Of a stretch of DNA of 44,899 nucleotides, positions 25,174-43,369 are shown piece by piece. The position numbers were made by a program, and so were the translations under genes. The first letter of the stretch is position 1. Every line of letters begins with the position of its first letter. The notes beneath the pieces are model-generated. The model saw only the letters and a program-made list of their open reading frames with translations. It did not search any database and was not told the DNA's origin. Origin of the DNA: Escherichia phage SSL-2009a; sequence record NC_012223.2. One strand, 5' to 3'.

Positions 25174-25184
25174 GTTTACTATAG

Positions 25185-27040: not shown

Positions 27041-27059
27041 CTCACTGTCTCCGGGTATT

Positions 27060-27085: not shown

Positions 27086-27087
27086 TC

Positions 27088-27121
27088 AATATAATGCAAC
27101 CAATATGATTATGCAACCAAT
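27088..27121 (-). promoter_or_regulatory. candidate promoter with two direct ATTGGTTGCAT sites (-35 TTGCAT, 17 nt, -10 TATATT)
   Basis: atgcaaccaat at 27094-27104 and 27111-27121 (+ strand); on the minus strand the first copy supplies TTGCAT, the second fills the spacer, TATATT at 27093-27088. Confidence 0.5.
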
Positions 27122-27444: not shown

Positions 27445-28136
27445 TTTAAATTTTCCTCGTTAACCGCTATCGCGAAGCCGCGCGGGGTGAGCGACCTGAT
27501 TAATTTGGTGCGGGCAGATTTGCCTCCGAGGCGACTATACTGCTTCGAGTACCCTTTTTCAACGAATACCGGCTTTTTCTCTGGTATACGGAAGCCGTTG
27601 CCGGTCCATAAGCAGGTCAGCTTCGGATATGAATCGCGGGCGTTGATGTATTCCGGGAAGAGCGGGTGCACGTCATCCTCCGGCAAATAGCCGCCATACT
27701 CCCACGGGTCAAACGAGTGGTCCGGCTTACGCCATTGAGTGGAGAGCACGCTGCGCGGATTCTCAATCATATATGGCACTTCAAAGAAATCACCCAGGTA
27801 AGCGGCGATCTTCGCGGTGCGCACCGCCTTAAGCTGGAAGGCAGGGTCGCGGGCGCGTTTGCGCGGGAAAGCTGGCGCACCGCTCACCGCCAGATCCGTA
27901 CACGGCGGGAATGCGTATATGATATCCGGCGCGCCGAAATCACCATTCATCGCGCGGTCAACGAAGTCCAGGTCGATAAACTCATTACGATATCGAATGC
28001 CGCAACCATAGATCCGGTAATCAAGGTACAACCCGTGATCGGCTTCGGAGTAGTTGAAGCAATAACACTTATGCCCCATCTCGGCAGCACGCTCAATCAT
28101 CAAGCCGCTGCCGTCAAATAATGACCATATAATCAT
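27441..28136 (-). CDS. C5-cytosine DNA methyltransferase-like protein (short, no obvious target-recognition domain)
   Basis: 231 aa; motif I-like LFDGSG, PC motif AFPPCTDLAVSG, ENV-like MIENP; shorter than typical Dcm-class enzymes. Confidence 0.55.
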   Translation of the reverse strand: MIIWSLFDGSGLMIERAAEMGHKCYCFNYSEADHGLYLDYRIYGCGIRYRNEFIDLDFVDRAMNGDFGAPDIIYAFPPCTDLAVSGAPAFPRKRARDPAFQLKAVRTAKIAAYLGDFFEVPYMIENPRSVLSTQWRKPDHSFDPWEYGGYLPEDDVHPLFPEYINARDSYPKLTCLWTGNGFRIPEKKPVFVEKGYSKQYSRLGGKSARTKLIRSLTPRGFAIAVNEENLK

Positions 28137-29593: not shown

Positions 29594-29780
29594 TGTTCCA
29601 GTTCCTTTTTGTGGCGTCGTAGTTGGTGGCGTGTCCGATGTGCACGCCGGTCGCCCGGAAGCTCTTAAATTTTTGCCAGCACACCGTTAACGGCAGCGGG
29701 TAATTCATGCCTGCGATAAACCATACTCGATCGCCTGGTTTGCATTCGCCCAGTGTGGTTAGTCGGTAGTGTTCTTTCAT
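29562..29780 (-). CDS. hypothetical small protein
   Basis: 72 aa from ATG 29780 (SD GGGAG 8 nt upstream); overlaps helicase start. Confidence 0.35.
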   Translation of the reverse strand: MKEHYRLTTLGECKPGDRVWFIAGMNYPLPLTVCWQKFKSFRATGVHIGHATNYDATKRNWNSETEVWKKAE

Positions 29781-29790
29781 CGTCATGTCT

Positions 29791-29816
29791 CCCAAAAATG
29801 GCGGGACAAGCCCGCC
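29791..29816 (-). terminator. intrinsic terminator on minus strand (GGCGGG-cuugu-CCCGCC + UUUUU), contains a GCGGGACA unit
   Basis: Hairpin directly after the stop of gene 29824-29997; T-run on the minus strand. Confidence 0.45.
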
Positions 29817-29823
29817 GTATTAA

Positions 29824-29997
29824 TTATGCTTGCGCGGCACGGTAGCGGCGCTGCCGTTCACGCTCTTTTTTATTTCGGCACGATTTGCACTCGGCCCGAT
29901 ACCCGTCTGGGCTGCGCGCCGTCTTTCCGGTGTATTTGTGGAACTGGGATAGCGGTTTAACACAACCGCAATTACTACAACGTTTTTCTTCAACCAT
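29824..29997 (-). CDS. small zinc-ribbon protein with basic tail
   Basis: 57 aa from ATG 29997 (SD GAGGA 8 nt upstream); CxxC...C..C (CSNCGC ... ECKSC) followed by KKERERQRRYR. Confidence 0.4.
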   Translation of the reverse strand: MVEEKRCSNCGCVKPLSQFHKYTGKTARSPDGYRAECKSCRNKKERERQRRYRAAQA

Positions 29998-30028
29998 TTC
30001 TAAAATCCTCGATAGGGCTAACCGGCCC

Positions 30029-30062
30029 ACTATACTGCTACGCGACCAATTCAGCAACCAAT
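30029..30062 (-). promoter_or_regulatory. candidate promoter (-35 TTGCTG within ATTGGTTGCTG, 17 nt, -10 TATAGT)
   Basis: On the minus strand; -35 overlaps the last codons of the VRR-NUC gene, -10 at 30034-30029, upstream of the zinc-ribbon gene. Confidence 0.4.
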
Positions 30063-30316
30063 AAATCACAGTCGTCTATGTTGTCGATGACGCGAACGTC
30101 CGCACCACGGCGGGCCATTCGCTCATGTTCACGTATCTGGTGCGGCTTCGGTTTTCCGCCCGGGCGCTTCACTTCGACGAACACTATTTTGCCGTTGATG
30201 ATGATAATCAGATCGGGCGCACCTGCGCGCCCCTCCCATGCCACTTTACGGCAGAATCCGCCGACGGCTTTCACCTGTTTCATCAGGTATATTTGAATCC
30301 TGCCCTCGGGTGTCAT
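30038..30316 (-). CDS. VRR-NUC domain nuclease
   Basis: 92 aa; GAPDLIII...VFVEVKRPGGKPKPHQ matches the PD-(D/E)xK pattern of VRR-NUC proteins (D, E-x-K, Q). Confidence 0.65.
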   Translation of the reverse strand: MTPEGRIQIYLMKQVKAVGGFCRKVAWEGRAGAPDLIIIINGKIVFVEVKRPGGKPKPHQIREHERMARRGADVRVIDNIDDCDLLVAELVA

Positions 30317-30504
30317 TTTGTTTGCAACTCCACGTTACGCAGACGAAGGTCTACCGGTATCTCCGATCGACCAGTTAGCGCCAGCGCCAGGTTTTCCGGT
30401 GTGACAAGTGCCGTAATGGTCTTGCCACGTTCCAGTCTAATGACGATGCTAATCTCATCATTGTCCGCCGCGCCAGCGCGCATAATGCTCATATCTGCTT
30501 TCAT
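30313..30504 (-). CDS. hypothetical small protein
   Basis: 63 aa from ATG 30504 (SD AGGAA 8 nt upstream; ORF extends to TTG 30549); immediately downstream of the DNA polymerase stop. Confidence 0.4.
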   Translation of the reverse strand: MKADMSIMRAGAADNDEISIVIRLERGKTITALVTPENLALALTGRSEIPVDLRLRNVELQTK

Positions 30505-30508
30505 AATA

Positions 30509-32800
30509 TTATTTCCTGTACCTATACATAATGTCGCCTTCCGCGGCAAGCGGGAATCCTTTCGCCCAAACCGGCAGGTCGCACATCAGCGCGCACAACT
30601 CCTCGGTTGTGTAGTCGTCGGTATCCGGCACTTCGGTTATCAGTTCATCGTGTACGGACAGTACGATCTCATACCCCGCAGCTTCAACGCCAGGCATGGA
30701 CCATGCGAGGATATCGCGGCACAGCGCCTGCACGATGTTTTCCGTCAGTTTGCCGCCGTAGGTGTACTGGAATCCCCACTGGCGCGTCGTCTGATTCTCA
30801 CCCTGATATTTAATGCGGGTGCTGGTGCGTTTCTTGCCGGTGTCTTCGTCGATCTCGGTCGTGACAGACAGCGCGATGCCGGGGTAGCTCATGATGCGCC
30901 CCGACGGTAACTCAATTTTCAACCACCACCCCGCGGCGTTCGGGTCGTCGCGTTCCTCGTCGAAGGTTGGGTCATGCTTCGCCTTCGTGCGGACTATCTT
31001 GAGCGCTTTCTTTCCATCCGGGCGAACGTTCGCGCCCGCCCAGTACGCTTTGCCCGGATTGCGGATCGCACAGAGCACCGCGTCTTCCAGTTCGGCCCAA
31101 AATGCTACCGTCTTCGGGTGCGACTCACGCCACATACGTTTGATTGCATCACACGTCAGCCATACGTTTTTCGGCAGTATGTAAGTCGGGCGCTCGTCCT
31201 TCTTGCCCGGCTTCGGCGGGCGCTTCGCTTCGTTAATGCGGGCGTATTCATAACCCCGTTTCGCCGCCGCCCATATGTGATCGGGGAATGTGCCCTTCAT
31301 CACTTCAGCCATCGCGTAAAGGTCGAGGCCCAGGTTTTTAGCGAACTGCAAGAACGCCGCCACGCCGCCACCATAGCCCAGGCCCAATTCGCACGCCTTA
31401 CCGATCTGGCGTAAGTCTTTGCGGTTGGCTTTAATGTATTCTGGGTCAAGGCCGAACATCTTACCGGCAGTTTCACAATAAATGTCGCGACCGGCCTTAA
31501 ACACCATTAGCGCTGTTTTCTCGCCAGCGATCCAGGCAAGTCCACGCCCTTCCACGTTGGAGTAGTCCGCTACGACAAACTTCTTACCCTTCGCCGGAAT
31601 AATGCACCCACGAACAGTCGAGGCCGTTAGCTTCGATATGTCATACGCCCAGTGCGCTGTCCCACGTAACAGGGAGTTGATGCCGTTGGTGAGCATGTGC
31701 GACCGCACCCAAAACGCGACGTCGCTCTCGCCCTCACGGCGCTTAATCTTCCCTTCGTGGTCGTCGCTATACTCGCCTCGCGCCAGGTTTTGCGGCTGGA
31801 AGCCTTTACCGGCCCAGCGTAGCGTGCGCTTTGCCCCACCATACTGAAGACAACCACGGCGGCGACCATCGGCGGACAGACCATTTACAAGCGGATTGTA
31901 CTTAGTCGATGCCGTTGATGACGCACCGAGGCGCATTTCGATAAGCACTTTGCCTTCGTCGGGGAAGTCTGGGTCTTCCAGCAGGTCGTTAAGCGTGGAT
32001 TTCTGCGCGTTGTGAATTGTGAACGCAGGCGCGAGGTCGCGCAGCGCTGGCAAGAAGTCATTGCCAGTCAGCTTACCGCCGAAGCGCTCCCAGGCTTCTT
32101 CCTTCAATTCTTCCTTATGCGCCTGTACCGCTTTGATCGCAGCGCGCGCCAGGTCAACGTCCACATAGAAGCCGCGGTCATTGATCAACTGGTCAATAAG
32201 CAGGATTTCGTCTTCCTTCGGCGTGTTACCCCAGTCCGGTATGCGCCAATAGACTTCCCTCATCGCTATAATATCCAGCGCGGCATAGCGCAGGAATTTA
32301 GCCCATTCTTCAGGGTGAGTCTCGCGAGTGTAGCGGCGGATTTTGTAAGTCTTAGGGGTGGGCTTACAGAATCGTTTAATCAGCGCCTTGCCTGCCTTAT
32401 CCTTCGCGTGCTCTGCGTCAACGCCCAGCACCTGGCATTGCATATCGAGGCTACCGGGCAGCGCGTGGCGAAAGGCCATAATCATGGTATCTTCGATCTG
32501 ACACACTGGCAGGTCAATGCCCCACTTCTCGCGAATAACCAGGCGGTCAAACAGGAGGCCGTTAGCCATCACTATTTTTGCTTTCTTGCGGGATACCCGG
32601 CGGAGCGCCTTGCGCAGTTCACGCGGCATTGTGGGGGACTCGGTGCAATCCCACGTTTGCACGCGGCCTTCGTCGATGGCGTATGTGCAAATCATAATCT
32701 CAGTAGTTGGGTGTTCCGCGTAGGCGTATGCGCCCACTTTCTTCAGATCCACCCCGCTAAATGTCTCGGTATCGAGAAACAGGCGTTCAAAGTCTTTCAT
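30509..32800 (-). CDS. DNA polymerase I-type (family A) with 3'-5' exonuclease domain
   Basis: 763 aa; N-terminal exo motif LFLDTETFSG; polymerase motif A VADYSNVEGRGLAW, motif B RQIGKACELGLGYGGG, motif C VHDELI. Confidence 0.9.
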   Translation of the reverse strand: MKDFERLFLDTETFSGVDLKKVGAYAYAEHPTTEIMICTYAIDEGRVQTWDCTESPTMPRELRKALRRVSRKKAKIVMANGLLFDRLVIREKWGIDLPVCQIEDTMIMAFRHALPGSLDMQCQVLGVDAEHAKDKAGKALIKRFCKPTPKTYKIRRYTRETHPEEWAKFLRYAALDIIAMREVYWRIPDWGNTPKEDEILLIDQLINDRGFYVDVDLARAAIKAVQAHKEELKEEAWERFGGKLTGNDFLPALRDLAPAFTIHNAQKSTLNDLLEDPDFPDEGKVLIEMRLGASSTASTKYNPLVNGLSADGRRRGCLQYGGAKRTLRWAGKGFQPQNLARGEYSDDHEGKIKRREGESDVAFWVRSHMLTNGINSLLRGTAHWAYDISKLTASTVRGCIIPAKGKKFVVADYSNVEGRGLAWIAGEKTALMVFKAGRDIYCETAGKMFGLDPEYIKANRKDLRQIGKACELGLGYGGGVAAFLQFAKNLGLDLYAMAEVMKGTFPDHIWAAAKRGYEYARINEAKRPPKPGKKDERPTYILPKNVWLTCDAIKRMWRESHPKTVAFWAELEDAVLCAIRNPGKAYWAGANVRPDGKKALKIVRTKAKHDPTFDEERDDPNAAGWWLKIELPSGRIMSYPGIALSVTTEIDEDTGKKRTSTRIKYQGENQTTRQWGFQYTYGGKLTENIVQALCRDILAWSMPGVEAAGYEIVLSVHDELITEVPDTDDYTTEELCALMCDLPVWAKGFPLAAEGDIMYRYRK

Positions 32801-32967
32801 TGCTTAATCCTCACCACGGCGTCAGCACTGCCGATCATGGAGAAGATACCGTCGGAAAGGGTAATCTCCTCGCCGTTGTTGCGAATCTCGGCAACTGTGA
32901 AATATTCGCCCAGCATTTTGGACCATACTTGCATTCCGACTTTTACTTCGCTGGCTTTAATACGCAT
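32797..32967 (-). CDS. hypothetical small protein (56 aa), translationally coupled to DNA polymerase
   Basis: ATG at 32967, stop overlaps the polymerase start codon (ATGA); below the 60-aa cut-off of the ORF track, found by manual translation. Confidence 0.35.
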   Translation of the reverse strand: MRIKASEVKVGMQVWSKMLGEYFTVAEIRNNGEEITLSDGIFSMIGSADAVVRIKQ

Positions 32968-32982
32968 TTTTCATTGTCCTAT

Positions 32983-33006
32983 TAAAAAGCCCGCATTAAG
33001 CGGGCT
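32983..33006 (-). terminator. intrinsic terminator on minus strand after SSB gene
   Basis: GCCCGC-loop-GCGGGC with UUUUU on the minus-strand transcript. Confidence 0.5.
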
Positions 33007-33025
33007 TGAATAGTGGGCTTTGCCC

Positions 33026-33805
33026 TTAACGGCGGCGACGTTTACGTGGCGCTTCGTCTTCGTCGTCGTCCTCATCTTCGTCATCGCGTGGCTTACGACG
33101 TTTACGAGGTTTTTCATCTTCGTCGTCTTCGTCATCGCGGCGCTTGGACTTTTTGGACTTGCGCGGCTTGTCGTCTTCGTCATCGTCATCACGACGTTTT
33201 GACTTTTTGGACTTGCGCGGGCTTTCATCTTCGTCATCGTTGTCCAGGTCTTCGTCTGAGCACGAAGATCCGCCACCGCCGAAGGCTTCGCCGTCATCAC
33301 GGAAGCGCAGACCCAAAAGACCAGCACCGAGTCCCTTGCCGTTGGTATTGTTCCACGCCCAGATATCGAGGGACACGTTGCAATAACAACCGGAGTAGAT
33401 CTCCTGGCCTTCGATCTCGTCGCCTTCTACGGTCAGACCTTGTTCAGTCTGCTTCTCGCCGAGTGACGTTTGAATGATCGGCTGCTTGAACGATTTGGCG
33501 TTGATGTACAACATGCCTTCGAATTCTTCGGTTACTTCGTCGCGCTCGTCACCGTCGCGAACTGCGCATTCCTTAGAATCCTGGGCGTAGTGGCGGTCCA
33601 TCCACTTATCGGCATTCTTCTCGGATTTCAGCTTGTCGGTGAGCACTGCGCGCGCTGCCGCTTCCACTTTGTCCACCTGCGGATCTTCTTTATCCAGAAG
33701 AATCACGGCACGGTATGCCGGTTTTTGTCCATCCTGTTTAGGGGTATCACGTTCCCAAATTTTCAGGAAACATACGCGCACTTTTTTCAGGTTGACTTTA
33801 GCCAT
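33026..33805 (-). CDS. single-stranded DNA-binding protein candidate (T7 gp2.5-like) with repetitive mixed-charge C-terminal tail
   Basis: 259 aa from ATG 33805 (SD AGGAA); N-terminus MAKVNLKKVRVCF resembles gp2.5-like SSBs (by recollection); C-terminal 70 residues are tandem D/E-rich and KPRKSKKSKRR-type repeats. Confidence 0.5.
   Translation of the reverse strand: MAKVNLKKVRVCFLKIWERDTPKQDGQKPAYRAVILLDKEDPQVDKVEAAARAVLTDKLKSEKNADKWMDRHYAQDSKECAVRDGDERDEVTEEFEGMLYINAKSFKQPIIQTSLGEKQTEQGLTVEGDEIEGQEIYSGCYCNVSLDIWAWNNTNGKGLGAGLLGLRFRDDGEAFGGGGSSCSDEDLDNDDEDESPRKSKKSKRRDDDDEDDKPRKSKKSKRRDDEDDEDEKPRKRRKPRDDEDEDDDEDEAPRKRRRR
33030..33245 (-). repeat. tandem coding repeats (about 55-bp period) in the SSB C-terminal tail
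   Basis: ttggactttttggacttgcgcgg repeated at 33144-33166 and 33198-33220 with flanking gtc/ttc triplet runs. Confidence 0.55.
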
Positions 33806-33861
33806 TTTCCAATTCCTCATTTTCACATGTATCGGGGTTATTGTGAGCCACCCCGTTCGGC

Positions 33862-33886
33862 TTGGTTGCCAATCTACTTGGTTGCG
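33862..33886 (+). promoter_or_regulatory. two direct TTGGTTGC half-sites (plus-strand orientation) between minus-strand genes
   Basis: cttggttgcc (33861-33870) and cttggttgcg (33877-33886), spaced 16 bp; orientation opposite to the flanking genes. Confidence 0.35.
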
Positions 33887-33895
33887 CCTAAGCGG

Positions 33896-34138
33896 TCAAG
33901 CACTTTCATTAAAAAGATTTCTGGTCACGTAGTTGGTGGCGTTCTCAATCCAGCTTAACGGCGGTCGGTCGATGTTCTTCTCCACCCAGTGGACGGCAGC
34001 GTCACTATATCCGTCATCAAGCCAGCGGGTCGGATGGCGAATCATCCACGCCACCATTAACACGCCTTGCACGCAATGCAGGATAAAGCCCAGCGCGCCG
34101 AGTAAAAACATCAATAAGATTGCAAATACTTTATTCAT
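33896..34138 (-). CDS. small membrane protein (two predicted TM helices)
   Basis: 80 aa, SD GAGGA; hydrophobic segments FAILLMFLLGALGFIL and VLMVAWMI. Confidence 0.45.
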   Translation of the reverse strand: MNKVFAILLMFLLGALGFILHCVQGVLMVAWMIRHPTRWLDDGYSDAAVHWVEKNIDRPPLSWIENATNYVTRNLFNESA

Positions 34139-35561
34139 TGCCTAAGTCCTCGTCAGTGGCCTCCGACCACGCAGGGCGCGGGTCGTCGATTGGTGCTAAC
34201 ACCGGTTTAGCGGGTGCGCGTGTGATTTTAGCACACAGCTTCGCCCACACTTTCGGTTTTTCGTCCTTCAGTACCTTCTCGGCATCTGTCGGGCTGAGCA
34301 ATGTTTCTTTGTACATCACATCGCGCTTGATCCGGGCCTTCGTGAAGATTTCAATCACTTCGCTCTCGTCCGCCCACTTACGGATCCCTTCCTTACCGGC
34401 AACCATCTTGAGGCCCAGCGATTCGCCATCGCCCGCCATGACCGCCTTGAATACCGCGGACTCGATAGCCTTGATGTGCTGGCGCATTGCGTCCAGGCCT
34501 TCATAAGCCTTGCGCAGTTCCGCAGCGCTCATAGCGCCTGGTGTGGATTCCTTCTTGCCTCGTTTAGCACGTCGTGCCGCCTTCCGGGCTTCGCGGGCCA
34601 TATTGCGATCGTGGTTGGCGCATTCTTCCTCGGTCGCCTCGCTCACGTCGTCGCCCAGGTCTTCGTCGGTTGCCGTTGGTGGTGTCATAGTGTCGATTGC
34701 GGCCTTCGCCCGGACGCTGCACTGGTCCGCAAATCTGCACCACTGGCACGCATCGACGCTGGGCCGGAAGTCCGCGCGGGTTAGTCCCTTCTTGCCGCGG
34801 GCGTATGCATCGAGCGCGGCGATAGCACGCTTGGACGCAAACTTCGCGAATATCTCCAGGGCTTCTACCGAAATATCCCATTCCGACGCCCCACCGCAAT
34901 ACGGCTGGAAGATAACCAGGCGCACGGACGTAATGTCGTACATGGTTTGCAGCTTGCGCAGCAGGCCGAGCGCGTACAACATAAGCTGTTTGTTTTCTTT
35001 CGCCTCGACCTTATGCCGCCCGGTCTTCAGGTCGCCAACAATCAGCATGTACGTTCCGTCGGTCTTTTTCATGACCATGACCATATCGGCAGTACCGAAC
35101 GTTTTAATCCTGTCGCCGTCGATCTCGAAGCCTGAGTGAAGGACGCGGGTAAGATCGGCGCGCATCTCAAGCTGGACAAACTCCGCCACTTCAAGGAGCG
35201 GACGCCAGTGGTCGATGTATGCATCGCACTGCTTCACCATGTCGTCGTTGACCAGTACGCCGCCTTTCGGTGCTTTCGGGTGGGCCTTTACTGGCCCCTT
35301 GCCTTCGTTCTCGACGTAGCACCCTTTATACGTCTTAGCGGTTATTTTCTTCTCACCGGCGATAATGCGGTTTAGTACCACCTCAGATACGGTGTGCATA
35401 CTCGTACCGTTAATCGCGGCTTGCCCGGATTCGTTCGGGATATCTTTTTCTACCACCAGGGCGGCGGGACACCCCATCCATTTTTTAGCACCGGATGGGC
35501 CAAGTAATGAGTGTTCCGTATTACTACCTGATTGCGTTTTACGTTTTGGTTTAATCGCCAT
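34131..35561 (-). CDS. Cas4-like / RecB-family PD-(D/E)xK exonuclease
   Basis: 476 aa; N-terminal Cys (WMGCPAA), nuclease core GDLKTGRHKVEAK with QLMLYAL (QxxxY), C-terminal Cys triad CQWCRFADQC consistent with a Cas4-type Fe-S cluster. Confidence 0.65.
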   Translation of the reverse strand: MAIKPKRKTQSGSNTEHSLLGPSGAKKWMGCPAALVVEKDIPNESGQAAINGTSMHTVSEVVLNRIIAGEKKITAKTYKGCYVENEGKGPVKAHPKAPKGGVLVNDDMVKQCDAYIDHWRPLLEVAEFVQLEMRADLTRVLHSGFEIDGDRIKTFGTADMVMVMKKTDGTYMLIVGDLKTGRHKVEAKENKQLMLYALGLLRKLQTMYDITSVRLVIFQPYCGGASEWDISVEALEIFAKFASKRAIAALDAYARGKKGLTRADFRPSVDACQWCRFADQCSVRAKAAIDTMTPPTATDEDLGDDVSEATEEECANHDRNMAREARKAARRAKRGKKESTPGAMSAAELRKAYEGLDAMRQHIKAIESAVFKAVMAGDGESLGLKMVAGKEGIRKWADESEVIEIFTKARIKRDVMYKETLLSPTDAEKVLKDEKPKVWAKLCAKITRAPAKPVLAPIDDPRPAWSEATDEDLGNE

Positions 35562-35749
35562 TATTCCACCCTTGAAAACTGAGCAATGTAATATTCATGT
35601 TTAACACCGGCCCGCTTCGCGGCTTCGTTCATGGTAGCCGCCAAACCTCGGGCTTGAGTCCAGCAGCAATTCCAGTTCTGATTCATAACAATTTCTGGTT
35701 GCTCATCGCCGGTAATACGGCAACGAAATAAAACAAAGAATATAGCCAT
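35561..35749 (-). CDS. hypothetical small protein
   Basis: 62 aa, SD GGGAGA; stop overlaps the start of the Cas4-like gene (TAATG). Confidence 0.35.
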   Translation of the reverse strand: MAIFFVLFRCRITGDEQPEIVMNQNWNCCWTQARGLAATMNEAAKRAGVKHEYYIAQFSRVE

Positions 35750-36001
35750 TTATTTTGTCTCCCAGCGGTCAATTGTTTTTGCTTCGGATGCAACTGCGAA
35801 GCGAACATATTCCAGATTAGAATCCGCCCAAATATAAAAGTCGGGGTTAGTAAATGTGGTGCGCTTAATTTGCGCGGGGGTGTTGCGGCGTTTATCAATT
35901 ACAGCAACGCGCGATTGAAAGCTGCCGATGCGTTCGAATAACCAATAGTACGGGCGCTGGTCGCGGGAATCCACCGCCTCGATTAGCGTGAAGCGTGCCA
36001 T
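35750..36001 (-). CDS. hypothetical protein
   Basis: 83 aa, SD GAGGA 7 nt before ATG 36001. Confidence 0.45.
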   Translation of the reverse strand: MARFTLIEAVDSRDQRPYYWLFERIGSFQSRVAVIDKRRNTPAQIKRTTFTNPDFYIWADSNLEYVRFAVASEAKTIDRWETK

Positions 36002-36012
36002 TGTCTCGTCCT

Positions 36013-36041
36013 CTAAAAAGAGGCCCGCAGATTAGCGGGCC
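36013..36041 (-). terminator. intrinsic terminator on minus strand after the first gene of the leftward operon
   Basis: GGCCCGC-loop-GCGGGCC followed by UCUUUUU on the minus strand; overlaps the leader of the next gene. Confidence 0.45.
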
Positions 36042-36049
36042 GGATAATA

Positions 36050-36592
36050 TTAGTCTTCCAGTTCGAAATAAGTTTCGACGATTTCTTTTAGCTCGGTGTG
36101 GAAGTCTTCGACGTCGTCGTCTTCCAGTTTAGCGATTGATTTGATCTCGAACGATTCCAGCAGGTCGTCGAATTCGTCGTTCGCATCATCATCATCGCCG
36201 CCTGCAATAATAGCGGCATACTGTTTGATTTCGTCGCGCATCTCTGCCAGCGGGTCGGCTTCTTTCTTACCTTTGCCTTTCGCTGGTGCTTTTTTACCCT
36301 TCGCCGGTTTTTCGTCTTCGGCTTCATCATCATCGTCGTCATCCTCTACGACTTCTTTTTTGGCCTTTCCTTTAGACTTGGTTTCTTTTGCCGCGCCTTT
36401 TTTCGCCTTGGGCGTATCTTCGACTTCGTCCTGATCGTCGTCTTCGACTTCAGTCTCCGGCTTTGCCTTGCCTTTCTTAGCGGTGCCGTTTGCTTTTGGG
36501 CCTACGGCAGCGCCCACAGTTTCATAATGTTTAGCGATGGTTTCCAGTGCTACTACGCCGCGAGTGATCAGGTTTACGATTTGCTCAAACAT
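36050..36592 (-). CDS. highly charged acidic/lysine-rich protein (first gene of leftward early operon)
   Basis: 180 aa from ATG 36592 (SD GGAG 7 nt upstream; the six-frame ORF extends to 36820 but the upstream part lacks a start context); alternating poly-D/E and K-rich blocks. Confidence 0.5.
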   Translation of the reverse strand: MFEQIVNLITRGVVALETIAKHYETVGAAVGPKANGTAKKGKAKPETEVEDDDQDEVEDTPKAKKGAAKETKSKGKAKKEVVEDDDDDDEAEDEKPAKGKKAPAKGKGKKEADPLAEMRDEIKQYAAIIAGGDDDDANDEFDDLLESFEIKSIAKLEDDDVEDFHTELKEIVETYFELED

Positions 36593-36795
36593 GGTATATC
36601 TCCGATTGGTTAAGTTTAGGTGTCGGCAGTAAACTTCGTCGGTGGCCTTAACATAGTGCCAGGTTACGCGTTCTCCCTTTCGGGTAGTGGACCTGGTTAT
36701 ATAATCACGGTTGGGAATCCTGACACTTCGATCCGGCCCCTGCGTTGCCCCTCTCCAGTTTGCGTCCTGCATCCTGTCGACGAGGTGAATATTAG

Positions 36796-36805
36796 ATTGG
36801 TTGCA
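36796..36805 (+). promoter_or_regulatory. ATTGGTTGCA motif copy in the divergent control region
   Basis: Exact 10-mer; TTGCAG could serve as a -35 with TAATTT about 16 nt downstream. Confidence 0.35.
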
Positions 36806-36825
36806 GAAGGGAGTCAACAACTAAT

Positions 36826-36932: not shown

Positions 36933-36961
36933 TTGACACCCTGCGGTTTTAGGTGTAGTTT
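36933..36961 (+). promoter_or_regulatory. candidate sigma70 promoter for the rightward early operon (TTGACA, 17 nt, TAGTTT)
   Basis: Consensus -35 TTGACA at 36933-36938, 17-nt spacer, weak -10 TAGTTT; about 30 nt upstream of ATG 36993. Confidence 0.4.
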
Positions 36962-36962
36962 C

Positions 36963-36979
36963 GTTGGTCATTAACCAAC
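36963..36979. promoter_or_regulatory. inverted repeat GTTGGT-catta-ACCAAC overlapping the leader of the HTH gene
   Basis: Perfect 6-bp arms; the arm sequence matches the core of the ATTGGTTGCA family. Confidence 0.35.
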
Positions 36980-36992
36980 CGGAGACAGAATA

Positions 36993-37322
36993 ATGAATAT
37001 CAACGACGCAATCGAAATGTTAACTAAGACTGTTTGCAGTGAGACTAGCCGGTCGTGGGCTTATACCGATGCCGTTGGGGCGGTGCTATTTGAGGTCGAG
37101 CGCCTGCGCAGTGTAGAAAAAGAATTACGCGCCAGGCTGGAATTGCTCAACGGTACAGCGGCGAGCAAGCTGCAGAAGCACAATGAAGAAATGGAAGAAT
37201 ATAAAAAACAGGTTATCAGTTTGCGCGCCGAGGGCAAATCCTGGGCGATGATTGCCGAGTTGACCGGAATTAATCAGAGCACAGTGCGCTCCTGGGTACG
37301 CAATAATAAAACTTCTAAGTAA
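36993..37322 (+). CDS. helix-turn-helix DNA-binding protein (putative transcriptional regulator)
   Basis: 109 aa, SD GGAGA; C-terminal HTH-like segment SWAMIAELTGINQSTVRSWV. Confidence 0.55.
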   Translation: MNINDAIEMLTKTVCSETSRSWAYTDAVGAVLFEVERLRSVEKELRARLELLNGTAASKLQKHNEEMEEYKKQVISLRAEGKSWAMIAELTGINQSTVRSWVRNNKTSK

Positions 37323-37332: not shown

Positions 37333-39597
37333 ATGAGCTTAATTAAATTCGCTGTAACAAGACCCGCTAAAAAAGGCGAAAAAGCCAGGGCGGAAAACTT
37401 CCAGATGACTACCGAAGAGTTTTTCGAATTTATCAATGATGCGAAAGAAATCTCCTCGGTGCATATCAACAAAACGGAAGATAAAGCCGAGTATGCACGC
37501 CGCAAGCGTAAGGCCGACGGCATCGTGGCGTATACCAGTGACGGATTGCGTCGCAAGACCAGTGCGGTGGACCGCTCGATCCTGTTCTTCGATATTGACC
37601 GTACTGACACCCGCACCCTACGCCGCTGCCGTAAGGCGTTCACCGACGCGGGACTGGAGCACGTCTTCCACACCACAACCGGCGACCGTCACCCACTGAA
37701 AGGTGGAACGCGTTGCGCTCGCTTCCTTGTGTTGACCGACAAGCCTGTACCGGCTGAAGACCTGGGCCGTGTCCAGTATGCGCTATTACACCAACTGGGC
37801 CTGTCAGACGTGGACTTCGACGACTGCACGAAAGACACAAACCGCCTTATGTACCTGCCACACCAGCAGTCTGTTATTAAGTGCCACTATGGCAAGCGCG
37901 CCCGCGTCCGTCGTCTGCTCCGCCAGGCTGACAAGCTGGGAGTTGAGAAAGAGGAAGTCCGCCGCGAACTGACCCAGGGCGACGACGCAGTGGCAGACGG
38001 CATTCTGGACTGGTGCTTCCAGGCAGGATTCGAGGAGTTATCTTCCGGTCGCGGTTATGAAGTGCCGTGCCCGAACGAACATCTGCACAGCGGCGAAGGG
38101 TCAACGGCTATCATGGTCAAGGATGGCGAGATCCGTTTCAAGTGTATGCACACCGGCAACGAGTGTTGCTCGGAACTGAATAGACACCAGCACCTGGCGC
38201 TACGTCTTATAGGTATCCCGGACCACCTGAACGTCGAGCCACACAATATGTCCCGTAAGCAAATCGCCGCCATCCTGCCGGGGTTGGACGACGAGGAGGT
38301 CGAATCCTTATACGAACATATTGTTGATGCGGTTGGTGACGGCGAAGAATACGGCGTGTGCACCGATGCGGATCTGGATAACGAGCCGGTCGCACTATTC
38401 AGTAAGCACGACCCGATTATCGAGGGGTTGATTAACTTTAAATCGACCTGGTATCTCGCCGGTGAGTCGAACATTGGTAAGTCTTTCTATGTGCTGGGGC
38501 AAATGGCGTCAGTATCTGCCGGTATTCCGTTTGGGGGGGCGAAGGTCGTCCAGTGCCACAACTTCTATTTCGATGCGGAAGGTGGCGAAGCCTCAAATCA
38601 GCGTAAAGAAGCATTGCAGATTAAATACGAGCACGACCTGGACAAGCTGCACATTATCGATCTGCAATCACGCGGCTGGGATATCACCAGCAAATCCGGC
38701 TTGCGCGAAGTTATCAGCTTCATCAACCGCACCGCTAACGGCGAACCAGTTGGCCTGGTGGCGTTCGACTCACTCAACCAGACTGTTGCGCTGCGGTCCG
38801 CCGATGCTAAACCGTTTGACGAGAACAACGCCAGCGATATGGGTGAAGTGGTCAAAGCGCTGAAAGCCATTGCGGAAAATACAGGTGGCAGTGCTGGCGT
38901 CATCCACCACCCGGCGAAAGGTGCAAACGGCAGCAGAACCCCACGCGGATCCGGTGCGCTGCATGGTGCTGTCGATTCAGCTTTCTTCCTGGAACAGCCA
39001 GACGACAACCAGCCAGGCCAATTGAACCTGTATCACGAAAAGTCACGTAACGGCATCAAGCAAGCGCCGCGTGGCTTCGTCCTGCTCAAGTGCAAGGTGA
39101 AGGTAGATCTCCGCAAGTCGGAAGCGTTCGCGTCGCACCAGTCCACCAGCACCGGGCCGGACTTCGGCGACGTCGTTGCCGGTTGGGACGTCAAACCAAT
39201 TGCGTCCACGCCACGCGACGAGACTCTATACCTCGTACCGGTCGCCCTGGCACCGTTCGCTATAGAACAGGCGAAGGCCGCAGGGAAAGCCGCAGTTAAG
39301 GAAGAGAACACCGCAGGACCGCGCAACGAAAAAGAGAAAGTGCTTTATGCGGCCCTGGAAAAACTGATGGAAGATAACCCGGACCATACTGGATTCAGTA
39401 AATCGGCAATCGTCCGCCAGGCGGGACTCGCGAAGGGGGGCACTTCGACGAAGGCAATCGACGATATGGTCGAGCGCGGCGTGATTGGTTTCTATACAGA
39501 TCCGCACACCGGGGCCATCTATGGGTCGTCGAATTTAGTTATCAAATCGGATATCCCCATTACGCTTTCGGCGACCGATGACGACCTGAAAGATTAA
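37333..39597 (+). CDS. DNA primase/helicase-type replication protein (P-loop ATPase with zinc-binding region)
   Basis: 754 aa; Cys/His cluster CPNEHLHSGEG...FKCMHTGNECC; Walker A GESNIGKS and Walker B-like LVAFDSLNQ; immediately followed by iteron locus B. Confidence 0.7.
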   Translation: MSLIKFAVTRPAKKGEKARAENFQMTTEEFFEFINDAKEISSVHINKTEDKAEYARRKRKADGIVAYTSDGLRRKTSAVDRSILFFDIDRTDTRTLRRCRKAFTDAGLEHVFHTTTGDRHPLKGGTRCARFLVLTDKPVPAEDLGRVQYALLHQLGLSDVDFDDCTKDTNRLMYLPHQQSVIKCHYGKRARVRRLLRQADKLGVEKEEVRRELTQGDDAVADGILDWCFQAGFEELSSGRGYEVPCPNEHLHSGEGSTAIMVKDGEIRFKCMHTGNECCSELNRHQHLALRLIGIPDHLNVEPHNMSRKQIAAILPGLDDEEVESLYEHIVDAVGDGEEYGVCTDADLDNEPVALFSKHDPIIEGLINFKSTWYLAGESNIGKSFYVLGQMASVSAGIPFGGAKVVQCHNFYFDAEGGEASNQRKEALQIKYEHDLDKLHIIDLQSRGWDITSKSGLREVISFINRTANGEPVGLVAFDSLNQTVALRSADAKPFDENNASDMGEVVKALKAIAENTGGSAGVIHHPAKGANGSRTPRGSGALHGAVDSAFFLEQPDDNQPGQLNLYHEKSRNGIKQAPRGFVLLKCKVKVDLRKSEAFASHQSTSTGPDFGDVVAGWDVKPIASTPRDETLYLVPVALAPFAIEQAKAAGKAAVKEENTAGPRNEKEKVLYAALEKLMEDNPDHTGFSKSAIVRQAGLAKGGTSTKAIDDMVERGVIGFYTDPHTGAIYGSSNLVIKSDIPITLSATDDDLKD

Positions 39598-39653: not shown

Positions 39654-39699
39654 GTGTAGTGTAAATATAGTGCATAGTTATGCAATAAAACTGCATAAA

Positions 39700-39860
39700 G
39701 TAAGCGGGACAAAAAGCGGGACAAACCAGGGGCGGGACAAAGCGGGACAGCACCCCTGTCCCACCCCGGATGACGCGGCCTGGCGGGGAGCGGGACAGGC
39801 GGGACAACTCCCAGTCTTTCAGACTAGACGGGGGTCAGCGGCCCCCCTCGTCTGAGACTG
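39700..39860. repeat. iteron/palindrome-rich element B (second copy of the 150-bp GCGGGACA element; putative origin-associated)
   Basis: Six direct GCGGGACA units, one GGGACAG-cacccc-CTGTCCC palindrome, and the same terminal hairpin as locus A; near-identical to 11978-12137. Confidence 0.7.
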
Positions 39861-40014
39861 CATAAAATCCGGGATTGCAAAATACACGGCAGCATGTTGC
39901 GGATTGCGGTCGTCGCTGAACTAGGCAACCAATGCGAGTTGCAGAACGGTGGGTGGGAAATGCAGTTTGCAGTCACAGCAGATAGCGATCAACTTTTTCA
40001 TGCGCATGATTAAT

Positions 40015-40055
40015 ATTGGTTGCATTCGTGCCAGCACCCTGCTAGATTGGTTGCA
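40015..40055 (+). promoter_or_regulatory. candidate promoter/operator (ATTGGTTGCAT as -35, TAGATT -10, second ATTGGTTGCA over -10/+1)
   Basis: TTGCAT 40020-40025, 17 nt, TAGATT 40043-40048; second motif copy 40046-40055; SD GAGGA 40065-40069; ATG 40077. Confidence 0.5.
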
Positions 40056-40076
40056 CACCAACATGAGGACTGAACA

Positions 40077-40367
40077 ATGAAAAAATTAATCTGGAATTAC
40101 GCAATGGCCCTGGCGAAGCTGGTTGAAGTTAAACACACACACGGCAGCGCACCCGAGGCGCGCCAGGTAGCTCCGACCTGGTATGCGATCATGAACGCGA
40201 CCGCGGACCTGAAAGACCCAGAACCGCTGCGCATGGCTATCCGGGTCTACGCGATGGCATTTGCCCGTGAGCGCATGGCGTATCGCTTCGGGGTCGGTGA
40301 GACGGCAGCGGCAAACGTCGCCCGGATTGCAGCCCAACGTGAGCTATTCGCCCAGCTTGCAAAATAA
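40077..40367 (+). CDS. hypothetical early protein
   Basis: 96 aa, SD GAGGA 7 nt upstream; first gene after the origin-like region. Confidence 0.5.
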   Translation: MKKLIWNYAMALAKLVEVKHTHGSAPEARQVAPTWYAIMNATADLKDPEPLRMAIRVYAMAFARERMAYRFGVGETAAANVARIAAQRELFAQLAK

Positions 40368-40376
40368 GGGGCCAAA

Positions 40377-40646
40377 ATGGACCGCAGACGCGCGAAACAG
40401 CTTTCGTGGCATATTCCACTGCATTGCGTACGAATGTGGGCTAAGAATGCGTCTGAGGGCGATTCTGTGTTCTGGAGCTATCGCGACGACGTTAAGCCGT
40501 TGACGCAGACTCGCTACTTGCACCAGTTCGCCGCGCAACATGATTTCTATGTGCGGACCTCCTTGCAACCAATGGGGATCCGTATTACATTACGCCGGAA
40601 GCCCGCAGTCGAGCGGGTAGGCAAACACTGGAGACTGAGCAAATGA
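40377..40646 (+). CDS. hypothetical early protein
   Basis: 89 aa, SD AAGGGG; basic (Arg/His-rich). Confidence 0.45.
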   Translation: MDRRRAKQLSWHIPLHCVRMWAKNASEGDSVFWSYRDDVKPLTQTRYLHQFAAQHDFYVRTSLQPMGIRITLRRKPAVERVGKHWRLSK

Positions 40647-40786
40647 CACCAGCACTAATGGCGGGATTCTCGCAGAAGTTTATTTCTGTTGATGCCTGCA
40701 TAGCAGATTATGAGATGGACGGCATCGCTACTGTGTGCGATGGCGACACGAAAACTGCCGACGAGATTGAGGAGACAGAACAATGA
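40643..40786 (+). CDS. hypothetical small acidic protein (47 aa)
   Basis: ATGA overlaps with both neighbours, SD GGAGA 8 nt upstream; found by manual translation (below ORF-track cut-off). Confidence 0.4.
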   Translation: MTPALMAGFSQKFISVDACIADYEMDGIATVCDGDTKTADEIEETEQ

Positions 40787-41400
40787 AATTACTATTCCGC
40801 CGCAAGCATGATGGTCGCATCCTGAAGCCGATCCAGACCCTGGATTCCTACGTCCGCTTACAAAACGCGGCAGGCAATCGGGTGTGGCGGGCGCCGAAAC
40901 ACACGCTGCCGCAGTTCTTCGACGTACTCACTCACGATATCGAGCGCGGCGATGTGCTGCGTGATATTCGCGACGGCAGTATGTGGGTCGTCGAGTATGT
41001 CGGGCTTCATGGCCTGCGTATGCAAAACCGCAAGGATGGCGTCGCCGGTATGACTTACTTCGGCCTCGTAAATTACGAGCGAGTGGGTCGCAAATACAGC
41101 CTTCGTGACCGCCAGCCGCACGAGCGCGCGAACGTCATAGCGGATGCCGTTAACCGCGTAACGCATGATGTGGCGCAAAAGACGCGTGTGGAGTTCCGCA
41201 AGTCACAGCCAGCCTATGCAACCTATGACGCGAGCAAAGTGATGGATCCGATACGCCAGGCGACGCATGCGATTATTAATCGCTTTGATGCCGTGACGAA
41301 TGCACAGCGCCATGCGCAGGAATACGGTTTTGGATTCATCCGGGTGGAACGAGACGGCAGCATGAAAGCCATCGACCCGCGCTCGGTGATTCTGAAATGA
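40783..41400 (+). CDS. hypothetical protein
   Basis: 205 aa, SD GAGGAGA; no motif recognised. Confidence 0.5.
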   Translation: MKLLFRRKHDGRILKPIQTLDSYVRLQNAAGNRVWRAPKHTLPQFFDVLTHDIERGDVLRDIRDGSMWVVEYVGLHGLRMQNRKDGVAGMTYFGLVNYERVGRKYSLRDRQPHERANVIADAVNRVTHDVAQKTRVEFRKSQPAYATYDASKVMDPIRQATHAIINRFDAVTNAQRHAQEYGFGFIRVERDGSMKAIDPRSVILK

Positions 41401-41537
41401 GTGCGACGACCCGTGATATGCTTCAGCACAACCGCTTTGAGATAGGCGGTCGGGTGTTTCGCAATTACTTCGTGGCGCGTGCATGGGCGCGCCATATTGG
41501 CAAACCGGAAGGGGCAATTCGATGTTACACGATGTGA
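41397..41537 (+). CDS. hypothetical small protein (46 aa, speculative)
   Basis: ATGA overlap with upstream gene; overlaps the start of the next gene. Confidence 0.3.
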   Translation: MSATTRDMLQHNRFEIGGRVFRNYFVARAWARHIGKPEGAIRCYTM

Positions 41538-41809
41538 TTTATTGGTTTGGTTTGATCGGGGGGCTGTGCCTGCTTACTGCGGTGCTGTTGGGCGTCCTGT
41601 TATTCGTAGCATGGCCCGCCGTGGAAGCCGCCAGCATTACCCGCATGACGTTCGAAATATACAAGCGCCGTGGAATCACGGAGCACCCAACCAGGTTGCG
41701 CATGTGGTGGCTGTGGTATCGGGATATGATAGGCGGGCGAACATTCGAAGCCGTCCGATCATCCGGGTGGGAGTGGAAAGGCGTCGGCAAGTGGTCCGTT
41801 TTCGATTAA
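41522..41809 (+). CDS. membrane protein (lysis-cassette-associated, function unknown)
   Basis: 95 aa from ATG 41522 (SD AAGGGG); one N-terminal TM helix and Trp-rich C-terminal part. Confidence 0.45.
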   Translation: MLHDVIYWFGLIGGLCLLTAVLLGVLLFVAWPAVEAASITRMTFEIYKRRGITEHPTRLRMWWLWYRDMIGGRTFEAVRSSGWEWKGVGKWSVFD

Positions 41810-41826
41810 TTATGCAAGCGTGATAT

Positions 41827-41862
41827 AGTCCCAGTGAGCTAAAACTTACTGGGACTTTTTTA
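41827..41862 (+). terminator. strong intrinsic terminator abutting the holin start codon
   Basis: Perfect 9-bp stem AGTCCCAGT/ACTGGGACT with 11-nt loop, then TTTTTTA running directly into ATG 41862. Confidence 0.55.
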
Positions 41863-42152
41863 TGGATAAGCTAAACGAGTGGCTATTCGCCCTGGCATGT
41901 CTGGCGGGTGGCTTCGTAGGCGCACGCATTCATGGTGAGGCTACGAAGGGGCCGCTAAACTTCGTTTTGTATGTGGTAGTCGGCTTCCTGTGTGCCATAT
42001 TTGGCGCACCGGCTATTGCCGAGTGGGCTGGTTTGTCGGGTGAGCGCACTGTCGCCGGTTTGGGCTTCGTAACCGCAATCTTCTGGATGCCAATCGCCGA
42101 CCGGATCAGGGAGACTATTGCGTCGTTCCGACTTCCGGGGGGTGCAAAATGA
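41862..42152 (+). CDS. holin-like membrane protein
   Basis: 96 aa with about three hydrophobic helices; immediately upstream of a second membrane protein and the endolysin. Confidence 0.5.
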   Translation: MDKLNEWLFALACLAGGFVGARIHGEATKGPLNFVLYVVVGFLCAIFGAPAIAEWAGLSGERTVAGLGFVTAIFWMPIADRIRETIASFRLPGGAK

Positions 42153-42394
42153 TTATCTCCGTCCTGTTGTTTGTTATCATCGGGGCTTCGTCCCTGTTTA
42201 ACGTGTATGCGCCGTCCGTCCAGGATGGCATTTTCGGTCGGGTGCTGTATCTGCTAACGGCAATGATCTGTATTATCGGACTGTTGCAAACAGGAGACGT
42301 ATCTGATACCACCTGGACCGCGTTAATCTGGCTGTTTGCATTGCGCACCCTGCGTAATGCTGTTTTGAATGGGGTAAAACATGCGATTCAGTGA
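42149..42394 (+). CDS. holin/antiholin-like membrane protein
   Basis: 81 aa, two to three TM helices; ATGA overlap upstream, overlaps endolysin start. Confidence 0.45.
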   Translation: MIISVLLFVIIGASSLFNVYAPSVQDGIFGRVLYLLTAMICIIGLLQTGDVSDTTWTALIWLFALRTLRNAVLNGVKHAIQ

Positions 42395-42872
42395 CAACGG
42401 TCTAAGATTCACGGCAGCATGGGAGGCTTTCAGCCCGGTGCCGTATTTCGCGACCAAGAAAGAGCAGGCCCGCGGCCTGTACACCTGGGGTTATGGTCAT
42501 ACCGGCACTAACCCGCCGCGAAGCATTACCCGAGAGGAAGCGCTGGCGCTACTTAAGCGCGATGTGGCGTATGCCGAGGACTGGGTTAACAAATACGCAC
42601 ATCCGAGCATTAACCAGGCGCAATTCGACGCGCTGGTGGATCTGGTAATCAATGCCGGTCCTGGTCCGATCGTACCGGATGACGTCGCGAATGATTTCGA
42701 TGATGCGGTGCGACTGGGCAACTGGGCGAAGGTCCGTGCTACGCTGCCGCTGTTCCGCAAGCAAGGCGGGGAAGTGCTTAAGGGTCTGGTACGCCGTGCA
42801 ATCGGCAGACAGGCGTTGTTTGATGGTAAGCAGTGGGACGTTGCCGAGCGAATCGGTCGTAACGCTGCATAA
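42381..42872 (+). CDS. endolysin (phage lysozyme, T4-lysozyme-like fold)
   Basis: 163 aa; conserved Glu (WEAF) followed by GLYTWGYGHTG, resembling the E...GYYTIGIGH signature of T4-type lysozymes. Confidence 0.65.
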   Translation: MRFSDNGLRFTAAWEAFSPVPYFATKKEQARGLYTWGYGHTGTNPPRSITREEALALLKRDVAYAEDWVNKYAHPSINQAQFDALVDLVINAGPGPIVPDDVANDFDDAVRLGNWAKVRATLPLFRKQGGEVLKGLVRRAIGRQALFDGKQWDVAERIGRNAA

Positions 42873-43324: not shown

Positions 43325-43331
43325 GCTTGAC

Positions 43332-43369
43332 TTGCAACCAACATAGGGGCCATACTGCAACCAACCAAT
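43332..43369. promoter_or_regulatory. two TGCAACCAA motif copies (reverse orientation)
   Basis: ttgcaaccaa 43332-43341 and tgcaaccaaccaat 43356-43369, just upstream of the micro-ORF SD. Confidence 0.4.

Follow-up and report, generated by a model that had tools for sequence, protein, structure and literature searches.

A candidate accessory operon of six small genes between the replication and lysis modules of Escherichia phage SSL-2009a

What do the small genes between the replication and lysis modules of Escherichia phage SSL-2009a contribute, and do they act on the host or within the phage program itself? The window, that is, the whole stretch of DNA analyzed here, is the complete ~44.9-kb genome of this member of the genus Dhillonvirus (NC_012223.2; 44,899 nt). 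A preliminary description, made from the letters of the sequence, had picked out at 40077-41537 five small open reading frames (ORFs) without recognizable motif, lying behind a candidate early promoter, and had pointed out that promoter-proximal early genes of this kind commonly encode host-takeover or anti-defense functions. On closer analysis, the block is an already annotated, functionally uncharacterized example of a familiar phage accessory cluster. The reading that we favor, tentatively and at a little less than an even chance, is that it forms a self-contained six-gene accessory operon in a slot like that of the lambda nin region, between the replication module and the lysis cassette; that this operon is early and directed at interaction with the host is plausible.

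Six genes between the helicase-primase and holin genes

The block consists of six genes, referred to below as p1 to p6 (lengths in amino acids, aa; pI, isoelectric point):

40077-40367, + strand: p1, 96 aa, pI 10; phrog_9839
40377-40646, + strand: p2, 89 aa, pI 10.9; conserved
40643-40786, + strand: p3, 47 aa, acidic, pI 4.1; phrog_15977; presence varies
40783-41400, + strand: p4 (100% identical to SSL-2009a gp58), 205 aa
41397-41537, + strand: p5, 46 aa, basic; phrog_13628; highly conserved
41522-41809, + strand: p6, 95 aa; phrog_2531, with the match beginning at Met14 of the longer ORF

The five ORFs described at first (96, 89, 47, 205 and 46 aa) were recovered at the same positions and with the same lengths, all on the + strand. 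The good ribosome-binding sites ascribed to them were seen for p1-p4, with the Shine-Dalgarno sequences GAGGA (p1), AAGGGG (p2), GGAG (p3) and GAGGAG (p4), but not for p5, where the site is weak (GGTGA). Similarly, stop-start overlaps were found at three of the four junctions (ATGA at p2/p3, p3/p4 and p4/p5), whereas p1 and p2 are separated by a 9-nt gap. A sixth gene, p6, which was absent from the first list, overlaps p5 by 16 nt and belongs to the unit, in which it would be co-transcribed with p1-p5.

Each ORF matches a PHROG family at E values of 1e-34 to 1e-102, every family being labeled 'unknown function', and public records annotate all of the block genes solely as hypothetical proteins. 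Gene order and orientation are preserved in each Dhillonvirus relative examined, and the pairwise ratio of nonsynonymous to synonymous substitution rates (dN/dS) is below 1 for every block gene, with an overall range of 0.05-0.71. Because they are syntenic across the genus and under purifying selection, the ORFs are real genes. No homolog of known function was found for p1-p6 in searches of Pfam, NCBIfam, PADLOC and PDB sequences, and the five ORFs proved to be without recognizable motif also in an exhaustive hidden Markov model (HMM) search. Housekeeping homologs for all five ORFs, which would have refuted the preliminary description, were therefore not found. p1-p5 are restricted to Dhillonvirus. 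At the RNA level, no Rfam family reached its gathering score, and a sub-threshold match to NsiR1 merely corresponds to the terminator hairpin described below.

The six genes (40077-41809) fill the slot between the helicase-primase gene and the holin and endolysin genes. For the genome as a whole, megablast returned 157 related phage records, nearly all of them E. coli Dhillonviruses, with Henu5_1 as the closest (96.5%). The surrounding modules are as follows:

56 to about 24000, + strand: packaging and structural genes
24005-36820, - strand: replication and DNA-modification genes
36993-37322, + strand: helix-turn-helix (HTH) gene with a 109-aa product
37333-39597, + strand: helicase-primase gene
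between the helicase-primase gene and the block: repeat-rich intergenic region of 480 bp
41862-42872, directly after the block: two holins and endolysin

Divergence, rearrangement and predicted folds

Amino acid identities were calculated to 11 relatives, and presence and dN/dS were determined against 12 relatives, with the following ranges for the block and its flanks:

p1: identity 48-88%; dN/dS 0.27-0.71
p2: identity 75-93%; dN/dS 0.14-0.41
p3: identity 59-100%, absent in 4 of 12 relatives; dN/dS 0.05-0.30
p4: identity 38-100%; dN/dS 0.15-0.39
p5: identity 89-97%; dN/dS 0.05-0.36
p6: identity 77-95%; dN/dS 0.12-0.46
helicase-primase: identity 95-98%; dN/dS 0.03-0.06
holins, endolysin: identity 85-100%; dN/dS 0.03-0.16

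None of the 12 relatives lacks p1, p2, p5 or p6, and the dN/dS of p1 and p4 is 3-10 times that of the flanking genes. When nucleotide conservation was ranked genome-wide, p1, p3 and p4 fell within the 7th-10th percentile, p2 and p6 at about the 35th and p5 at the 79th. Thus, the expectation that this is the most variable part of the genome is borne out in so far as p1, p3 and p4 rank with the genes of lowest conservation (38-100% amino acid identity, compared with 93-100% in the flanking genes), but p2 and p5 are conserved and five regions vary more than the block, namely the tail-fiber region and the islands at about 5.7-6.3, 26.7-27.0, 30.3-30.6 and 42.9-43.8 kb.

The most divergent p3/p4 alleles reach a dS of 1.3-2.3 compared with about 0.4 in the flanks, which indicates that old p3/p4 allelic lineages have been exchanged and that the divergence is not merely due to fast evolution in place. 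Clustering at 90% identity in a 5.8-billion-protein database gave 430 clusters for p4, 83 for p1 and 20 for p2. The viable isolates BF9, JL1 and Bas84 have lost part or most of p4: BF9 carries an in-frame fusion of p3 to the p4 C-terminus together with two additional small ORFs, JL1 retains the C-terminal half of p4, and Bas84 has a p4 of 124 aa and a p1 of 159 aa. Metagenomic proteins, among them P0125 and P0126, likewise show rearrangements, including p4N::p6C and p3N::p4 fusions, and an additional 59-aa gene stands between the promoter and p1 in Henu5_1 and SO-1. Small ORFs are inserted in the operon of other Dhillonviruses, as in SO-1 (gp49, 40658-40837), BF9 (2190-2342 and 2647-2817) and Bas84 (2872-3042).

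Beyond the genus, the content of the slot changes altogether. MN855773.1, a 44.8-kb phage of a related genus, has a helicase-primase that is 46% identical and homologous lysis genes, and nine small ORFs, none of them related to p1-p6, occupy its slot between helicase-primase and holins (2362-4653); a stand-alone 62-aa homolog of the p4 C-terminal module (P0144, 6001-6189) lies after its endolysin, among small ORFs. In these respects the block resembles the lambda nin region, which likewise lies between replication and lysis modules, consists of tightly packed, translationally coupled small ORFs (here three ATGA junctions, one 16-nt overlap and one 9-nt gap) and has mosaic content with complete turnover between related genera; part of the block may likewise be dispensable. 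It differs from the nin region in having its own conserved promoter and its own terminator, and no relationship to NinB/Orf, NinG/Rap, NinH, NinI or Q was found in Pfam, NCBIfam and annotated PHROG families.

Variability of this kind could also mean relaxed constraint only, with p1, p3 and p4 as decaying or selfish filler without current function, an explanation that we regard as very improbable. It would account for the raised dN/dS, for the frequent deletions and fusions and for the lack of any detected homolog of known function, but even between deeply diverged alleles (dS up to 2.3) the dN/dS stays well under 1, invariant segments are kept (p4 residues 51-60 and C-terminal tail; the C-terminal 45 aa of p1), and both reading frames and translational coupling are kept in hundreds of alleles.

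Among the products, p4 gave the most informative model. In its layout, two tandem Tudor/SH3-like beta-barrels (residues 1-104) are followed by an indel-prone linker of helical character (105-150), and the protein closes with a conserved C-terminal module whose last residues are DGSMKAIDPRSVILK. AlphaFold2 predicted the N-terminal half with confidence (predicted local distance difference test score, pLDDT, 83-91) as two tandem five-stranded barrels, followed by a low-confidence helical linker and then by a C-terminal helix and hairpin. In structure, the barrels match best the RNA-polymerase-binding Tudor domains of UvrD/PcrA and have a likeness to NusG/Spt5 KOW domains as well; when predicted viral structures were compared, a 'host shutoff protein' of a Bacillus phage was the sole named match outside Dhillonvirus (E 6e-6, template modeling score only 0.16-0.24). 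Sequence variation is concentrated at residues 21-50, in the indel-prone linker 111-140 and at 151-160, while hardly any change is seen at residues 51-60 (HDIERGDVLR) and the C-terminal tail is well conserved. An exhaustive HMM search with the p4 profile against 1.84 billion representatives yielded 24 matches, which are alleles, fragments, one paralogous Dhillonvirus barrel protein and two stand-alone C-terminal modules in other phages. P0141 (1018-1362), another small ORF inserted in the operon of a Dhillonvirus, is paralogous to the second barrel of p4 (HMM E 6.6e-6); SO-1 gp49 and the 50-aa and 56-aa ORFs of BF9/Bas84 were considered as further barrel paralogs and rejected at hhalign probabilities of 1-4%.

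As modeled, the p4 barrels share the five-stranded Tudor/SH3-like fold with the UvrD/PcrA C-terminal domain and the CarD/Mfd RID, but identity is only 6-17% and there is no Pfam match, and in p4 the domains stand in tandem within a small phage protein that adds a helical linker and a unique C-terminal module. Across 19 alleles, no Tudor-family match was obtained in Pfam or NCBIfam even at E <= 10, and the Tudor likeness is that of a generic fold, with KOW, SH3, FeoA and EF-P scoring nearly as high. Given the predicted barrels, RNA polymerase is a reasonable first candidate partner. A more specific proposal, which we hold to be unlikely, is that p4, and perhaps p1, is a hypervariable adaptor docking onto a conserved host machine, for instance the RNA polymerase beta lobe, and that the operon is an unrecognized arms-race hotspot. 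p4 would then dock through its Tudor-like barrels and invariant C-terminal tail, taking over or protecting transcription; its surfaces 21-50 and 105-160 would diversify because host immune sensors recognize it; and new takeover or counter-defense factors would be co-regulated with the replication genes by a genus-specific operator system.

p1 has a conserved N-terminus (17 aa) and a conserved C-terminus (~45 aa) around a hypervariable, indel-rich center (residues 18-50), and its C-terminus fits the classical 20-residue HTH pattern. Sub-threshold matches were found to HTH_Tnp_4 in 11 of 20 alleles (best E 0.028) and to Cro in 3 of 20 (best E 0.077), and hhalign aligned p1 with lambda Cro over 37 columns (P 0.0025, probability 12%). 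In this alignment the p1 C-terminus would correspond to Cro helices 1-3, with 32% identity, and p1 is likewise, as in lambda Cro and other small phage HTH regulators, the first gene behind an operator-bearing promoter; it differs from Cro in its hypervariable central segment and in that all scores lie below thresholds.

The remaining products are less distinctive. p2 is predicted as a basic, two-layer alpha/beta domain resembling R3H, IF3-C, Alba and winged-helix domains. p5 had no match in PDB, and its assignment as a NUMOD/HTH-like protein was dropped as it lacked profile support. p6 has an N-terminal hydrophobic segment, read as a putative transmembrane helix, followed by a Trp-rich C-terminal domain. 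The latter is the only widely distributed part of the block, with some 300 records from Salmonella Jerseyvirus and a few from Erwinia, Pectobacterium and Proteus phages; in Jerseyvirus the homolog is located among small ORFs downstream of the lysis genes, with other small ORFs between.

Candidate transcription signals at the two ends of the block

The signals considered at the two ends, together with their counterparts elsewhere in the genome, are:

40022-40048, + strand: candidate sigma-70 promoter of the block, TTGCAT-17-TAGATT, read from the sequence
40047-40061, unstranded: operator-like palindrome TTGGTTGCACACCAA (TTGGT-N5-ACCAA), overlapping or adjoining the -10 of the block
36964-36978 and 6221-6235: other copies of the palindrome, each at or just after a -10-like hexamer
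6228, 6242, 13528, 16875, 22337, 25186, 25198, 27096, 27113, 30054 and 33862: sites of the 8-mer TTGGTTGC, first set
33878, 36797, 39610, 39645, 39925, 40016, 40047, 40565, 43334 and 43357: sites of the same 8-mer, second set
36817-36789 (- strand, TTGACT-17-TAATAT), 43327-43356 (+ strand, TTGACT-18-CATACT) and 27113 (- strand, TTGCAT-17-TATATT): examples of sigma-70-like promoters overlapped by the 8-mer
41821-41829, + strand: extended -10-like element TGATATAGT, recognized by eye, invariant in 13 phages
41827-41861 (hairpin 41827-41856), + strand: intrinsic terminator closing the unit, 12-bp stem, 6-nt loop, T6

The intergenic region upstream of the block has a conservation score of 0.91, above p1, p3 and p4. 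In its alignment from 10 phages, the -35 hexamer TTGCAT is kept in 9 (BF9 has TTGCGC) and the -10 is TATATT (9/12) in 8 and TAGATT in SSL-2009a and Henu5_1, while the spacer differs between phages. Conserved hexamers around a variable spacer are the footprint expected of a working promoter. Phylogenetic footprinting therefore speaks for the candidate promoter that had been placed at 40015-40055, but the consensus scan left it unreported, as it matches the consensus at 8 of 12 positions, below the scan threshold.

SSL-2009a has exactly three copies of the palindrome TTGGT-N5-ACCAA in its genome, where 0.03 would be expected. The copy at 36964-36978 adjoins the near-consensus rightward promoter TTGACA-17-TAGTTT of the HTH and helicase-primase genes, and that at 6221-6235 lies at a minus-strand promoter upstream of a 104-aa ORF preceding an Nmad5-like gene. 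All 5 complete Dhillonvirus relatives compared likewise have three palindromes, and the copies at the HTH gene and at the block are syntenic in all five. The 8-mer TTGGTTGC is present in 21 copies genome-wide, compared with about 1.4 expected, and relatives retain 19-21; most copies are intergenic and paired and overlap sigma-70-like promoters in either orientation. The 8-mer is probably a half-site of a genus-specific operator. We infer that such an operator system co-regulates the block with the replication and DNA-modification genes, and the operator common to the block, helicase-primase and DNA-modification promoters is the one observation from which early expression of the block would follow.

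The best candidate for the regulator that binds this operator is the 109-aa product of 36993-37322, a coiled-coil and HTH protein (Sigma70_r4_2/HTH_23) with a dN/dS of 0.02-0.10. It is mis-annotated in relatives as 'transposase' or 'gamma'. Beside its gene, divergent near-consensus promoters lead leftward into the replication genes (36789-36817, - strand) and rightward into the HTH gene itself (36933-36961, + strand). At the third palindrome, the 104-aa ORF (5884-6198, - strand; phrog_24635, unknown function) has its own operator-bearing promoter and is situated within 5700-6300, among the least conserved islands of the genome; the 254-aa gene downstream of it (5080-5844, - strand) has a SECphi18 counterpart annotated as 'nucleotide modification associated protein' (Nmad5 position).

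The region upstream of the block also contains one of two near-identical copies of a non-coding element of roughly 170 bp (39690-39870); the other copy (11820-12140) is upstream of the tape-measure gene. Each holds 6-7 GCGGGACA iterons and a conserved hairpin (AGTCTTTCAGACTAGACGGGGGTCA..GGCCCCCCTCGTCTGAGACT), and the record of Sodalis phage SO-1 names the copies 'region A' and 'region B'. No Rfam match was found for the element. The presence of the iteron element in two places casts doubt on a simple single-origin reading. The cos sequence predicted for phage EE09 (ATCTTAAGGG) was not found in the SSL-2009a genome.

With iterons and operators directly upstream, the block might consist mainly of phage-internal regulators or replication accessory factors, the variable genes being passengers. 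p1, through its HTH, and/or p2 would then bind the TTGGTTGC operators or GCGGGACA iterons and control early-to-late switching or origin function. We consider this rather unlikely, though it deserves more weight than the other rivals. It would fit the better conservation of this intergenic region than of p1, p3 and p4, the first position of p1 behind the operator-bearing promoter, the canonical HTH-like pattern of p1 with its sub-threshold Cro and HTH_Tnp_4 matches, the conservation of p2, p5 and p6 in 12 of 12 relatives, and the strongly basic p2 (pI 10.9) with its likeness to R3H, IF3-C, Alba and winged-helix domains. However, no regulator or replication protein with significant homology was found, the 109-aa protein is a much better HTH candidate behind the same operator type, and the dN/dS of p1 is the highest in the block, which is unusual for a core regulator. 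Moreover, MN855773.1 has a homologous helicase-primase but is without p1, p2, p3, p5 and p6, and carries the p4 C-terminal module elsewhere.

At the other end, the terminator hairpin at 41827-41856 is strong (-26 kcal/mol, z -4.5). Its T-tract runs right up to the ATG of the holin gene at 41862, which lacks a Shine-Dalgarno sequence of its own. Nowhere in the genome is conservation higher than at the p6-holin junction (41807-41864), which hardly varies among 13 phages. The element TGATATAGT within it is a possible separate promoter for the lysis cassette. It overlaps the 5' arm of the hairpin, and therefore transcripts begun there could not form the terminator; element and hairpin together possibly act as a promoter-in-terminator switch for the lysis genes.

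Such a junction also raises the question of whether the block is a late-switch or lysis-control cassette like lambda Q-PR'-tR', in which one product, for example p4 or p2/p5, would carry RNA polymerase past the terminator at 41827-41856 and on into the holin and late genes, and p6 would modulate the holin. This appears to us distinctly improbable. The abutment of terminator and holin ATG, which leaves no space for a conventional promoter or Shine-Dalgarno sequence, the near-invariance of the junction, the resemblance of the p4 barrels to NusG/Spt5 KOW and RNA-polymerase-binding Tudor domains, and the nature of p6 as a small membrane protein adjoining holins all agree with it. Yet no similarity to Q or another antiterminator was found, viable isolates have p4 truncated or largely deleted, and the Jerseyvirus p6 homolog lies downstream of the lysis genes and apart from them; in addition, the invariant TGATATAGT could start hairpin-free holin transcripts, which would make antitermination unnecessary.

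Possible host interaction and the proposed role of the operon

Two small Dhillonvirus proteins have demonstrated roles in defense, Ksap1, the trigger of Avs2 of Klebsiella, and anti-Tmn (PMC11564622, PMC11846954). The Ksap1 gene sits between the methyltransferase (Dam) gene and a phosphatase gene, and its SSL-2009a homolog, located at 25665-25886 (- strand), is 85% identical to that of SECphi18. ORF35 of SM_S22 encodes anti-Tmn; CDS0035 of the SM_S22 record, which by its numbering is ORF35 and lies at ~26 kb, has an SSL-2009a homolog at 26342-26797 (- strand; 80% identity). Like the block proteins, both are small, (nearly) genus-restricted and biochemically uncharacterized; Ksap1 tolerates deletion, and natural variants of both alter the outcome of defense. 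Unlike the block, they are encoded about 14 kb away and on the opposite strand. The accessory, fast-diversifying distribution of known anti-defense and trigger proteins is common to p1, p3 and p4, but not to p2 and p5. Published determinants were traced to genes other than those of the block: Ksap1 and anti-Tmn both map to 25.6-26.8 kb, the RAZR trigger is the portal protein, and the escape mutations for Retron-Eco8 and Borvo lie in SSB and DNA polymerase. In the literature examined, no defense phenotype is reported for the block genes.

Several results weigh against an early, host-directed operon, in addition to the sub-threshold promoter match given above. In BLASTP comparisons of Ksap1 and anti-Tmn with the block proteins, no match was better than E 2.6. 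The HTH scores of p1 remain under every curated threshold, the fold matches of p2 are heterogeneous, and the conservation of p2, p5 and p6 in all 12 relatives fits core phage functions equally. The 8-mer TTGGTTGC also occurs at promoter-like sites without known timing, and no transcriptome or transcription start site data for the genus were found in the searched literature. Finally, in the one proteomic study of the genus, EE09_44-49, which correspond to the block genes, were undetected (PMC10673088), a weak negative because only four phage proteins were found in infected cells. One of these four was EE09_56 (PMC10673088), which is syntenic with the SSL-2009a gene at 36050-36820 (- strand), the first gene of the leftward operon, encoding a highly acidic, low-complexity D/E/K-rich protein.

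Taken together, we still tentatively prefer the self-contained accessory operon, which could work as follows. Transcription would start at the host sigma-70-type promoter 40022-40048, with the start region under the TTGGT-N5-ACCAA operator, so that the operon would be switched on with the early, replication-phase genes and later be modulated by a phage DNA-binding protein, and it would stop at the hairpin-T6 terminator 41827-41861. The products, which are small, genus-restricted and mostly basic, most likely bind nucleic acid or host macromolecular machines and are not enzymes. In this scheme, p1 would perhaps be a Cro-like HTH protein interrupted centrally by a hypervariable insert, p2 would supply a conserved alpha/beta domain of basic character, and p3 would be an acidic peptide that the phage can do without. 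p4 would be modular, its two Tudor/SH3-like barrels belonging to a type that docks at the beta subunit of RNA polymerase. p5 and p6 are both small and conserved; p5 is basic, and p6 would be a membrane protein. p1, p3 and p4 undergo diversification, recombination and deletion, as would be expected of factors meeting variable host partners, be these takeover targets or immune sensors, while p2, p5 and p6 seem to behave as fixed phage-internal components. A role in regulation within the phage is possible for the latter three and perhaps for the p1 HTH.

Dhillonviruses (SECphi18, BASEL Bas14-18 and Bas83-85) are workhorses of present anti-phage defense research, and of two other small proteins specific to the genus, one (Ksap1) has already turned out to trigger immunity and one (anti-Tmn) to inhibit it. 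The block adds a tractable shortlist, in the form of a delimited operon in which hypervariable genes (p1, p3 and p4) are distinguished from fixed ones (p2, p5 and p6) and variable residues are mapped. Should p4 prove to bind RNA polymerase, or p1 to be the regulator that binds the operator, this would begin to explain how Dhillonviruses control host and phage transcription.

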